Shown piece by piece: positions 50,906 to 52,797 of a stretch of 64,000 nt of DNA. Location: NCBI RefSeq assembly GCF_024223415.1, contig NZ_CP100500.1; one strand, written 5' to 3'. Under the pieces are notes generated by a model. It was not told where the DNA came from and searched no databases. It saw only the letters and a program-made list of their open reading frames with translations. Each line of letters opens with the position of its first letter. The first letter of the stretch is position 1. The position numbers and the translations under genes were made by a program. Origin of the DNA: Escherichia coli. GTDB lineage: Bacteria > Pseudomonadota > Gammaproteobacteria > Enterobacterales > Enterobacteriaceae.

Positions 50906-51397
50906 TTAAAGCAGACCGTGTTCCGCAAAGGAGAAAACCTGGCTGCCACCGATTATCAGATGGTCCGGCACCCGGATATCCACCAGGGCCAGTGCCTGTA
51001 CCAGACGTTCCGTAATAAGGCGGTCTGCCTTGCTGGGTGTGACTTCACCTGACGGGTGATTGTGTGCCAGCACCACGGCAGCGGCATTGTGATACAGGGC
51101 GCGTTTAATCACTTCCCGGGGATGGACTTCCGTGCGGTTGATGGTGCCGGTGAAGAGGGTTTCACCGGCAATCAGCTGATTCTGGTTATTCAGATACAGC
51201 ACCCGGAACTCTTCACGCTCCAGTCCCGCCATGTTCAGAATCAGCCATTCCCGTGCCGCACGGGTGGAGGTGAAGGCCACACCGGGTTCATGAAGATGGC
51301 GGTCCAGGGTTTTCAGAGCCCGCAGAATGAGACTGCGCTCGCCGGGCGTCATTTCTCCGGGCAGAAAGGAAAGCTGCTGCATTGTCCCTGCCTCCAT
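50906..51397 (-). CDS. RadC-like JAB/MPN-domain protein (YeeS/YfjY family; true start possibly at 51352, MTPGERSL)
   Basis: JAMM-like motif HNHPSGEVTPSKAD is present in the translation. Confidence 0.75.
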   Translation of the reverse strand: MEAGTMQQLSFLPGEMTPGERSLILRALKTLDRHLHEPGVAFTSTRAAREWLILNMAGLEREEFRVLYLNNQNQLIAGETLFTGTINRTEVHPREVIKRALYHNAAAVVLAHNHPSGEVTPSKADRLITERLVQALALVDIRVPDHLIIGGSQVFSFAEHGLL

Positions 51398-51883
51398 TCA
51401 GTCGATGATGCGCATAATGGCGCTGCATTCCGGATGCTGCAGGGCGTAATCCCGCAGCCGGTAATAATGGACCGTCATGGCATAACACTCCGTACGACAG
51501 GCGTGATGACTGTACGTCATCAGACAGGCAGCAATGCCGGCGGCTTCCGGGCTCATTTCAGCGCGGTTACCGTTCATGGCATTGAACAGTACCCATGTTT
51601 CGCCATCATCGTCATCCGGTTCGGGCGCTATAAATGCGCCACCGTTGTTCAGTGTGTACAGATTCCAGATACCACCGCAGTAGTCTTCGCAAAGACGGTC
51701 CATCCAGCCGAAGATACGGGGCTCCAGGGTCACCCACTGTGGAATGAGGCAAAAATGCTGCGGCCAGAAGCTGATGCGCTGTTCATCAGGGACTATGGTG
51801 GCAACCAGCTGAGGCTGGTCATTCCCTGATGCAGCGGTTACGGAAACAGAAGATGTGGTGGAATTATGTGAAATGGTTTTCAT
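51398..51883 (-). CDS. Antirestriction protein (KlcA/ArdB-like, YfjX family)
   Basis: Translation from MKTISHNSTTSSVSVTAASGNDQPQLVATIVPDEQRISFW...; ATG at 51883 preceded by AAGGAG; the track ORF starts at an upstream TTG inside the tandem duplication. Confidence 0.75.
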   Translation of the reverse strand: MKTISHNSTTSSVSVTAASGNDQPQLVATIVPDEQRISFWPQHFCLIPQWVTLEPRIFGWMDRLCEDYCGGIWNLYTLNNGGAFIAPEPDDDDGETWVLFNAMNGNRAEMSPEAAGIAACLMTYSHHACRTECYAMTVHYYRLRDYALQHPECSAIMRIID

Positions 51884-51964
51884 GAAATGACTCCTTAAAG
51901 GACAAATAAATGCGTGGTTTTCATGAAATGACTCCTTAAAGGACAAATAAATGCGTGGTTTTCA
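51875..51964. repeat. Perfect 41-bp tandem duplication (2 full copies plus an 8-bp partial third) over the RBS and start codon of the antirestriction gene
   Basis: ggttttcatgaaatgactccttaaaggacaaataaatgcgt occurs at 51875-51915 and 51916-51956, followed by ggttttca at 51957-51964. Confidence 0.95.
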
Positions 51965-51978
51965 GGGTAATGGCTGAA

Positions 51979-52797
51979 TCAGCGCAGGCTCTCCAGCAGC
52001 GTTTCCGCCATCACCCACAATGCGCGGTTGAGCTTAATGTCAGTGTCAATGCTGTGAATGGCACGGGTATGGATACGTTTTCCTTTAGCGCTGCGACCTG
52101 AAATTCCGCCTTTCAGCATATTCTCCTGAATGGTCTGATAAGCACTCCACAGGTCCTTACCGTAATCCTCCCGGCGTCGTGGCGTCAGAATGTCGGCGGT
52201 GGTGACGGGCTGATGTTCGTCACCATAACGGTAAGTCAGTGCCGCCTGTGCCAGCGCCTGGCGTGCCGGTGGCGGCAGAATCAGCGACTGCATGGCATCA
52301 CGCTTTTCCTCAATCCGGTCAAAAACCCCCACCACCTCGTAAGCCCCTTCAATAACTTTCTCCACCACATTTCCCCGGTGCGGAACACGCACTTCCCCCA
52401 GAGACTGACCACAGACGCATCCGTTCTGACAGACGAACCTGAAGTAACCCGGCAGCATCTGGTAGCTGGAGGTACCGTCATGGGAGTTGAGCAGAATGAT
52501 TTCAGGGACATGTTCTCCGTTTATCTCTCCGGCCCGCCGCAGACGCAGCATATGTTTTGTGTATCCCCGGCGGCCCGGGTCGCGCACACGGGTCTGGCAG
52601 GCGAAGAATGGCTGAAAGCCTTCCCGCTGCAGGCTTTCCAGTACGGTGATGGTGGGAATGTACGCATATCGTTTACTGCGGGAAGTATGCCGGTCTTCAC
52701 CGAAAATACTGGGAACATAGTGCATCAGTTCTTCGTGTGTCAGCGGACGGTCACGGCGTATCTGGTTCGTATAACCAAAACGACTGGCTAGTCGCAT
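51979..52797 (-). CDS. DUF932-family protein (YfjQ/YafZ-like, 272 aa)
   Basis: Translation MRLASRFGYTNQIRRDRPLTHEELMHYVPSIFGEDRHTSRSKRYAYIPT... resembles prophage YfjQ/YafZ proteins (recalled). Confidence 0.65.
   Translation of the reverse strand: MRLASRFGYTNQIRRDRPLTHEELMHYVPSIFGEDRHTSRSKRYAYIPTITVLESLQREGFQPFFACQTRVRDPGRRGYTKHMLRLRRAGEINGEHVPEIILLNSHDGTSSYQMLPGYFRFVCQNGCVCGQSLGEVRVPHRGNVVEKVIEGAYEVVGVFDRIEEKRDAMQSLILPPPARQALAQAALTYRYGDEHQPVTTADILTPRRREDYGKDLWSAYQTIQENMLKGGISGRSAKGKRIHTRAIHSIDTDIKLNRALWVMAETLLESLR

Follow-up and report, generated by a model that had tools for sequence, protein, structure and literature searches.

The three adjacent genes at positions 50906-52797 of the window (the stretch of 64,000 nucleotides of Escherichia coli DNA analysed here) encode a DUF932 protein, an ArdB/KlcA-family antirestriction protein and a RadC-like JAB protein, all on the minus strand, and probably (at roughly 78%) form part of the backbone of a CP4-57-type selC island, as genes for entry and establishment that have a common origin with those of plasmid leading regions. 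By themselves the three genes are of little significance, because they are annotated in RefSeq, are found in nearly all E. coli genomes and have counterparts in K-12 and CFT073 that have been studied; they are the ordinary, already known and annotated backbone genes of an island that is very common at the selC site in E. coli. What matters is the explicit tie of this backbone to plasmid leading-region families, with DUF932 corresponding to the gene nearest oriT in F-like and MOBP plasmids, together with the finding that the island lacks all the transfer-specific features open to testing.

Gene content and integrity of the locus

As the first-pass annotation had stated, the three neighbouring genes are intact, with no internal stops or frameshifts in any of them, and RefSeq carries all three annotations in the closest complete genome, NZ_OY754364 (99.5% identical). 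Its family assignments were confirmed by significant profile matches for all three families (Pfam E-values of 5.3e-52 for DUF932, 4.1e-36 for ArdB/KlcA and 5.4e-45 for RadC), all of these scores lying far beyond chance. The features of the locus are given in Table 1.

Table 1. Positions of genes and sequence elements in the window.
Feature	Position	Strand	Remarks
Direct repeat from selC 3' end, TTGGCGGAGATCACAGGAGTCGAA	47843-47866	.	Island boundary towards setC
DUF4942 gene, last of island	47997-48842	-	36% identical to pOXA-48 leading-region DUF4942
Hairpin, 10-bp stem and T-rich tail	48873-48899	-	After DUF957; 3' bound of DUF932-to-DUF957 run
DUF957 gene	48927-49124	-	RefSeq annotation of 99.5% identical genome
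DUF5983 gene	49136-49624	-	Start overlaps cbtA stop
CbtA-family type IV toxin gene	49621-49995	-	E 6e-61
CbeA-family type IV antitoxin gene	50085-50453	-	E 8e-55
DUF987 gene, 73 aa	50616-50837	-	YpjJ/YeeT family, E 4e-39
RadC-like JAB-only gene, 158 aa	50906-51382	-	PF04002; JAMM motif intact
ArdB/KlcA-family antirestriction gene, 161 aa	51398-51883	-	PF03230; start ATG; pI 4.83
Perfect 41-bp tandem duplication, 2.2 copies	51874-51964	.	Spans ardB ribosome-binding site, ATG and first 7 nt
DUF932 gene, 272 aa	51979-52797	-	PF06067
Terminator-like hairpin, 13-bp stem and T run	52846-52875	-	Between DUF905 and DUF932
DUF905 gene, 77 aa	52897-53130	-	RefSeq name; 44% identity to F copy
Terminator-like hairpin, 12-bp stem and T run	53156-53184	-	Between irmA and DUF905

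The DUF932 protein

Regarding DUF932, the protein matches PF06067 over profile positions 2-227 of 227 with 177.3 bits (cut-off 23), and end-to-end alignment gave 62% identity to a 273-aa homologue encoded beside oriT on the F plasmid and 74% to YfjQ of K-12. By gene order the F-plasmid homologue is ygeB, no named annotation lying behind this equation, and in F the Frpo1-driven ygeA-ygeB unit is required for efficient conjugation, a conjugation defect having been reported (PMC9849209). At least 5000 plasmid records contain homologues at about 62% identity, and 4436 of these records are typed as conjugative. DUF932 directly adjoins oriT and traM, or mobA and a relaxase gene, in F, pKPHS2 and about ten more loci; in every plasmid-type locus examined oriT was its neighbour. 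The gene in the window would thus represent, on the chromosome, the leading-region gene that adjoins oriT in F-like and MOBP plasmids. The neighbourhoods of two distant metagenomic homologues are unidirectional arrays of small unknown genes with DNA ligases and give no information on ICEs (integrative and conjugative elements).

The family comprises 5386 cluster representatives at E <= 0.001, and its AF2 model is confident (pLDDT 94); no solved-fold match to the model was found, and a search of the sequence against the PDB gave only kinase matches at chance level (E 0.07). No NCBIfam model matched DUF932, ArdB, DUF905, the 840-aa protein or DUF4942. In the modelled DUF932 structure the central sheet bears a conserved His/Cys/Glu/Asn cluster, which hints at metal binding or an enzymatic function, the role of the protein being a guess because it has no solved structural relative. 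This very large, confidently modelled family has a homologue in a unit important for F conjugation and is therefore a reasonable target for biochemistry.

ArdB and the duplication at its start

The antirestriction protein matches PF03230 over the whole domain (123.5 bits, cut-off 25, profile positions 1-92 of 92) and shows full-length likeness to ArdB (PDB 2WJ9, phmmer E 1.2e-97) and KlcA (PDB 2KMG, E 1.2e-19), and it is a small acidic protein, all of which places it in the ArdB/KlcA family. In vivo, ArdB of CFT073 was inhibitory to each of the four type I families, while EcoKI was not inhibited in vitro, and YafX and YfjX also alleviate type I restriction in vivo (PMC2836571). By analogy, the ArdB protein in the window would shield unmodified island DNA from type I restriction on arrival in a new host, and its action would be indirect instead of DNA mimicry, as was shown for near-identical homologues and is extended here to this copy. 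The view of the three genes as an establishment and anti-defence module thus stands in so far as an 89% identical ArdB homologue inhibits type I restriction in vivo and the genes belong to leading-region families, but the module extends beyond these three genes.

The ardB start codon is an ATG with the sequence AAGGAG 8 nt upstream. The 41-bp duplication creates an upstream mini-ORF of nine codons (ATG at 51924-51922, TAA at 51897-51895), the stop codon of which overlaps the true ardB ribosome-binding site, and ardB translation in this strain could be altered as a result. The 40-mer across the duplication junction was found in none of 5426 complete E. coli genomes, and the duplication is the sole strain-specific oddity of the locus. 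A 182-aa open reading frame from a TTG at 51946 was considered as the true ArdB and rejected; the ATG at 51883 was preferred because the ribosome-binding site precedes it and the extension arises solely from the duplication.

The RadC-like JAB protein

The RadC-like protein matches PF04002 with 152.7 bits (cut-off 22.1), TIGR00608 with a score of 150.7 (cut-off 133.85) and PDB 2QLC with an E-value of 6.4e-25. The second ATG was chosen as its start because GGAGG lies 8 nt upstream, and the RefSeq start is identical; from the first ATG (51397) the protein would have 163 aa. The JAMM motif attributed to it earlier is complete (HxH-x7-S-x2-D), with HPRE upstream followed by H107-N-H109-PSGEVTP-S117-KA-D120, and these positions are invariant in comparison with YicR and the pOXA-48 JAB protein except for the Glu of HPRE (HPRI in pOXA-48). 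Chromosomal RadC/YicR has a C-terminal JAB domain with 43% identity and the same HNHPSG...PS.AD motif, whereas its approximately 60 residues N-terminal to this domain are missing from the island protein. The island protein is not a YicR orthologue, because its score with the canonical RadC/YicR equivalog NF000642 (161 bits, over positions 88-211 of 212 only) is below the cut-off of 180. It is predicted to be a zinc-dependent JAB hydrolase, its target in the island being presumed by analogy.

A studied relative of this protein is LfgB (YfjY) of K-12 (77% identity), encoded in the operon yfjXY-ypjJ-yfjZF and reported to act as a protease on the antitoxin MqsA, with a caution by the authors about contaminating proteases (PMC10846083). 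This raises the possibility that the three genes have been domesticated and serve host physiology, as in the K-12 example, where degradation of MqsA by the RadC-like protease releases the RpoS stress response. In K-12, deletion of lfgB made the cells more sensitive to acid, heat and H2O2, and the operon is repressed by MqsA, which LfgB degrades in vitro (PMC10846083); in addition, the module is near-universal in E. coli. The K-12 data, however, come from a paralogue of another island, ArdB is often lost from relatives, and thousands of conjugative plasmids carry the same families beside oriT, which fits a role in entry and not in housekeeping. Domestication is therefore rather doubtful as the main explanation, but the two roles are compatible and not mutually exclusive.

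Neighbouring genes and transcription

The genes for DUF905, DUF932, ArdB, RadC, DUF987, CbeA/CbtA, DUF5983, DUF957 and DUF4942 form a co-directional train. The genes from DUF932 through ArdB, RadC-like JAB, DUF987, CbeA, CbtA and DUF5983 to DUF957 lie in one co-directional run with hairpin/T-run elements at both ends; a transcription unit here is inferred, because promoter and terminator scans gave counts at background overall (11 versus 8.3 and 9 versus 8.0 expected). The CbeA/CbtA pair that adjoins the three genes may contribute to stabilisation of the island. On the F plasmid the homologue of DUF905 lies between ssb and a ParB-like gene and is yfjA by gene order. The sole Rfam match was the known IS102 sRNA upstream of Ag43.

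Type of island and distribution

The island was assigned to the CP4-57 type with a P4-type integrase because the gene train stops at the selC-derived direct repeat, a 24-bp selC direct repeat being known from island ends (PMC6174562). The window ends inside the island, and whole-island content was read from the relative NZ_OY754364, in which the island is about 47 kb long, has its integrase beside tRNA-Sec at the far end and contains genes for a P4-type tyrosine integrase, AlpA, DUF3987, YfjJ and a GTPase. The features of a CP4-57-type island are all present, namely a P4-type integrase beside a tRNA or tmRNA gene, a direct repeat at the opposite end and a backbone of AlpA, YfjI, YfjJ, GTPase and DUF932 to CbeA-CbtA. 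Among the annotated genes of the NZ_OY754364 island no relaxase, type IV secretion system (T4SS), coupling protein or phage structural gene was found; it has an integrase but neither the relaxase nor the mating-pair formation system of an ICE. The island would thus be incapable of self-transfer, with integrase and AlpA presumably kept for excision, and would need an outside route for its transfer.

This gene content counts against the proposal of the first-pass annotation that the island derives from a self-transmissible or phage-like element. A further reading takes the module for the remains of a true prophage or of a P4-like phage satellite; this would be consistent with the P4-type integrase and AlpA, with PHROG families that match all three proteins and with the annotation of the K-12 relative as cryptic prophage CP4-57 (historical label 'cryptic prophage CP4'). 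It is nevertheless very improbable, given that the complete relative has no annotated capsid, tail, terminase, lysis or P4 psu/sid/delta-type genes and that DUF932 was present in just 27 of 50,697 phage records, mostly of jumbo phages, as against the thousands of plasmids noted above.

Parts of the surrounding 11 kb are present in 5390 of 5426 complete E. coli genomes, in a median of three places per genome. In a scan for relatives with a 12-sequence alignment 80 loci were kept, almost all from Enterobacterales, and the same gene order and backbone was found in about 65 chromosomal loci of other Enterobacterales. Many of the relatives' loci lack ArdB, and the variable genes between DUF932 and RadC encode YfjR-like regulators and small secreted proteins or lipoproteins; these were considered as alternative anti-defence cargo, a reading that was rejected as they include no recognisable anti-defence genes.

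Transfer features and plasmid leading regions

The terms leading region and anti-defence island are used in the sense of Samuel et al. 2024. Regarding gene content, the DUF932, DUF905, KlcA/ArdB, JAB, DUF4942 and Hha families of the island are those of the F/pOXA-48 leading regions. The description of the three genes as typical of the leading region of ICEs is imprecise, the evidence being for conjugative plasmids, in whose leading regions homologues occur. Regarding adjacency to oriT, a blastn search with 11 plasmid oriT regions (F-like, pKPHS2, pOXA-48 (IncL) and eight others, with IncL/IncI-like types included) against the island in the window and in the complete relative gave chance matches only, the best E-value being 0.03. 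Similarly, no Frpo-like ssDNA promoter was found in the island, while the positive control, Frpo1 against Frpo2, matched with 89% over 559 bp, and no Frpo-like long hairpins or long inverted repeats were detected in the module.

These results bear on the proposal that the train functions as a conjugative leading region and that the island, mobilisable through an oriT alone ('iOriT'), travels with the help of a plasmid or ICE in the same cell, so that the genes for DUF905, DUF932, ArdB, RadC and DUF4942 would be the first to enter the recipient and would be expressed early. The six shared families speak for it, as do the common direction of all train genes, which end at the island edge, and a 2026 preprint that describes more than 1500 oriT-only islands, including the E. 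coli TAI, and anti-defence genes near oriTs (10.64898/2026.01.13.699239). The negative oriT, Frpo and hairpin searches speak against it, and the plasmid oriT lies immediately downstream of DUF932, where ArdB and RadC are found here. It is accordingly unlikely that the train from DUF905 to DUF4942 is functional in this sense and that selC CP4-57-type islands are hitchers mobilised by an ICE or plasmid via an ICE-type oriT; if they were, the spread of very common E. coli islands would be explained and DUF932 would be a general entry-phase factor of plasmids and islands.

Comparison with known systems

Under the preferred reading, in which the backbone genes and plasmid leading regions have a common origin, the island can be compared with two plasmids and two chromosomal islands. 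The F leading region, the genes of which are expressed early from ssDNA promoters (PMC9849209), shares homologues of DUF932 (62%), DUF905 (44%) and a KlcA-like antirestriction protein (27%) with the island, whereas oriT, traM, relaxase, ssb, psiB and Frpo of F are missing from the island, the gene order is different and F has no RadC-like gene there. The leading region of pOXA-48 (IncL) shares the JAB-only RadC-like protein (64% over 103 aa), DUF4942 (36%), Hha (37%) and KlcA (30%), the genes of which are all oriented towards oriT and mobA on the plasmid; in contrast to the island, the plasmid has ssb, a MOBP relaxase and a transfer system, and DUF932 is not annotated in the stretch examined.

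CP4-57 of K-12 has yfjQ (DUF932, 74%), lfgA/yfjX (ArdB, 68%) and lfgB/yfjY (RadC-like, 77%), followed, as here, by DUF987 and CbeA-type antitoxin and CbtA-type toxin genes, and both islands have a P4-type integrase, AlpA, YfjI, YfjJ and a GTPase. CP4-57 differs in its insertion at ssrA instead of selC and in the approximately 6 kb (yfjR to yfjW) that separate its DUF932 gene from ardB, which directly abut here, and the 41-bp duplication at the ardB start belongs to the copy in the window. Paralogous gene sets are present in CP4-6 and CP4-44 of K-12. Finally, ArdB of the CFT073 pathogenicity island (PDB 2WJ9; Serfiotis-Mitsa et al., PMC2836571) diverges in the N-terminal approximately 24 residues, but it has the same pI of 4.83 and shares 140 of 157 residues overall (89%) and, from residue 25 on, 132 of the 137 residues of the folded domain (96%) with the ArdB protein in the window.

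Identity and integrity of the three genes

Positions 50906-52797 hold three contiguous minus-strand ORFs, labelled in near-identical RefSeq genomes as "DUF932 domain-containing protein", "antirestriction protein" and "RadC family protein", and the profile searches proposed in the first-pass annotation for the DUF932, ArdB/KlcA and RadC families returned matches well past the curated cut-offs for all of them. No frameshifts or internal stops were detected in these ORFs, and the description of three neighbouring genes as intact is therefore correct. The central facts on these genes are already annotated or published.

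Coordinates of the features discussed (positions in the window)
Feature	Position	Strand	Details
DUF932 gene	51979-52797	minus	Pfam, E 5.3e-52
ardB	51398-51883	minus	Pfam Antirestrict PF03230, E 4.1e-36
ardB start	51883	minus	ATG; AAGGAG 8 nt upstream
RadC-like JAB gene	50906-51382	minus	Pfam PF04002, E 5.4e-45
radC start	51382	minus	Most likely ATG; GGAGG 8 nt upstream; RefSeq agrees
Tandem duplication	51874-51964		41 bp, perfect, 2.2 copies; repeats ardB ribosome-binding site, ATG and first 7 nt
Hairpin and T run after irmA	53156-53184	minus
Hairpin and T run after DUF905	52846-52875	minus
Hairpin and T run after DUF957	48873-48899	minus
DUF4942 gene	47997-48842		Last island gene
TTGGCGGAGATCACAGGAGTCGAA	47843-47866		About 130 bp past DUF4942; degenerate copy of selC 3' end, then setC
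rhuM pseudogene fragment	47602-47763		Between setC and the selC-derived repeat
Ag43 pseudogene	56377-59202 and 63086-63379		Two parts
Insertion in Ag43	59203-63085		3.9 kb; IS66-family element (ORFs of 133, 115 and 512 aa, minus) and IS3-family element (176 and 240 aa, plus)
IS102 sRNA family (Rfam)	63398-63634	minus	73 bits; gathering score 46

The antirestriction protein (predicted pI 4.83) matches 2WJ9, the solved ArdB from a pathogenicity island of E. coli CFT073, with an E-value of 1.2e-97 (140 of 157 residues identical overall, 132 of 137 from residue 25 on), and the KlcA structure 2KMG with 1.2e-19. The CFT073, YafX and YfjX proteins relieve restriction by all four type I families in vivo and do not inhibit EcoKI in vitro (PMC2836571); by analogy, the ArdB encoded here would be expected to alleviate type I restriction as they do.

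The tandem duplication at the start of ardB is not present in the closest complete genome (NZ_OY754364), and its junction 40-mer was detected in none of 5426 complete E. coli genomes. It gives rise to a spurious 182-aa ORF and creates a 9-codon upstream ORF (MKTTHLFVL) whose TAA overlaps the true ardB ribosome-binding site. The duplication may alter ArdB translation; it represents a mutation private to this strain or else an error of assembly.

The RadC-like protein matches the structure of a RadC JAB domain, 2QLC (E 6.4e-25), and retains HPRE and H107-x-H109-x7-S117-x2-D120, so that the metal-binding residues of the JAMM motif, as first described, are all kept. The HPRE and H-x-H-x7-S-x2-D positions are all shared with the chromosomal YicR; the JAB protein of plasmid pOXA-48 also shares the metal-motif positions, but has HPRI in place of HPRE. 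YicR has a stretch of about 60 residues before the JAB domain that the island protein lacks, and in NCBIfam the latter passes the subfamily model and scores 161 bits against the RadC equivalog cut-off of 180; it is therefore a JAB-only paralogue and not the housekeeping RadC.

Island setting and gene train

The window is E. coli chromosome, and the region 47000-58200 matches 5399 records, which come from 5390 of the 5426 complete genomes; a genome has a median of three matching places, and identity reaches 99.5% in the best matches. The minus-strand train comprises Ag43, an 840-aa YeeR-like protein, IrmA, DUF905, DUF932, ArdB and RadC-JAB, followed by DUF987, the CbeA antitoxin, the CbtA toxin, DUF5983, DUF957 and DUF4942. 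A selC direct repeat of the type found past DUF4942 is known from such islands (PMC6174562). The window stops inside the island, and island content was read from the closest complete genome, in which the island is about 47 kb long, reaching tRNA-Sec and a tyrosine integrase with an Arm-DNA-bind_3 domain, and contains AlpA, a DUF3987 protein (YfjI), a YagK/YfjJ protein, Hha, zinc-ribbon proteins, a GTPase, IS elements and sugar-utilisation genes. The GH32/porin/LacI cargo presumably resembles that of the AGI-3 island of avian pathogenic E. coli. The YagK/YfjJ protein of this genome (38306-38875, past the window end) has the RefSeq name 'inovirus Gp2 family' and scores below threshold for the REP_ORF2-G2P rolling-circle initiator family (26.5 bits, cut-off 27.8); should this protein nick DNA, it could be relevant to how the excised island replicates or is mobilised.

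Three strong hairpins with T runs were detected, after irmA, DUF905 and DUF957, while the stretch from DUF932 to DUF957 has none of comparable strength and two weak ones, one within cbtA and one where DUF932 starts. This suggests a putative single transcription unit from DUF932 to DUF957, although the overall counts of the scan were at background level. The hairpins after irmA and DUF905 lie only 25-48 nt before the next start codon, and thus either the downstream genes are read through them or the hairpins are located in 5' UTRs.

Ag43 is a pseudogene in the window, split by the insertion that carries the two IS elements and with its reading frame additionally broken near 58100; the genome with 99.5% identity has an uninterrupted copy of 3120 nt. 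The IS102 sRNA match lies upstream of the Ag43 start, a placement also seen in the K-12 yeeP-flu intergenic region. The rhuM fragment, outside the present island, appears to be left over from a previous insertion at selC.

Kinship with plasmid leading regions and transfer ability

The DUF932 family is large (5386 cluster representatives at E <= 0.001), with H82, R85, R87, E99, N104, H106, C123, N125 and H140 invariant or nearly so in an 86-sequence alignment, and is rare in phages, with only 27 records out of 50,697, most of them jumbo phages. Homologues of about 62% identity occur in at least 5000 plasmid records, at least 4436 of them typed conjugative, and RadC-like proteins in 2335 plasmid records (1649 conjugative). 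The DUF932 gene of F (273 aa) immediately precedes the divergent transglycosylase gene, oriT and traM, a layout shared by pKPHS2, and ten further plasmid-type loci have DUF932 directly upstream of traM, or of mobA/nikA and a relaxase, including a Massilia contig encoding a NikA-like protein, relaxase and T4SS coupling protein. The F leading region also encodes DUF905 (44% identity) and a KlcA-like protein (27%, E 6e-12), and that of pOXA-48 has genes for a JAB-only RadC-like protein (64% over 103 aa), DUF4942 (36%, at 15660-16520), Hha (37%) and KlcA (30%), all oriented towards oriT and mobA. The island DUF4942 has, in addition, a partial match to a phage 'DNA methyltransferase' PHROG (E 6e-19) and may be a further entry-phase gene. 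By gene order, the DUF905 and DUF932 genes of F are yfjA and ygeB. The ssDNA promoters Frpo2 and Frpo1 drive an early, transient production of YfjA and YgeA in transconjugants, and conjugation falls on deletion of Frpo1 or ygeA, while ygeB alone could not be deleted (PMC9849209, Couturier et al.).

These homologies make the initial interpretation of the trio as an establishment module reasonable, but the genes represent leading-region families and not a demonstrable leading region, since the island has no similarity to the oriT regions of 11 plasmid loci, namely F, pKPHS2, pOXA-48 and eight others (best E-value 0.03), no Frpo-like sequence (as a control, F Frpo1 matched Frpo2 at 89% over 559 bp) and no long hairpins, and since oriT comes after DUF932 in the plasmids, whereas ArdB and RadC come after it in the island. 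The further suggestion of a self-transmissible or phage-like ancestor was not supported, as relaxase, coupling protein, T4SS and phage structural genes are all missing from the island of the closest complete genome; with this gene content the island would not be self-transmissible. Many E. coli islands are reported to be oriT-only, their oriTs being of ICE type and having anti-defence genes nearby (2026 preprint, 10.64898/2026.01.13.699239); that the present island would, by analogy, be such an element with an ICE-type oriT has a low probability.

The same arrangement in other genomes

A single scan of a one-genome-per-species collection gave 80 loci, nearly all in other Enterobacterales, and the island proteins were then searched against these by tblastn. 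The same backbone was present at about 65 chromosomal loci, with AlpA, YfjJ and YfjI usually upstream, often on the opposite strand, and then the order GTPase, DUF932, (DUF905), (ArdB), RadC, (DUF987), CbeA, CbtA, DUF4942. RadC accompanies DUF932 in 54 of the 80 loci and ArdB in 36; where ArdB is absent, RadC usually follows DUF932 directly, after a gap of about 100 bp (19 of 24 loci), which makes ArdB an optional element inserted into a core of DUF932 and RadC. The slot between the two is in relatives empty (about 100 bp) or occupied by ArdB alone or by DUF905 and ArdB, and in others measures 2.5-5 kb and holds YfjR-like regulators, small secreted proteins or lipoproteins, or Ag43; the ArdB of Providencia is placed differently, upstream of DUF932. 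Regarding the paralogues in CP4-57 of K-12, identities are 74% for YfjQ, 68% for LfgA/YfjX and 77% for LfgB/YfjY. For LfgB, degradation of casein and of the antitoxin MqsA has been reported, with the authors' own caveat on protein purity, as has a need for it in stress survival, and yfjXY-ypjJ-yfjZF are described as one operon repressed by MqsA (PMC10846083).
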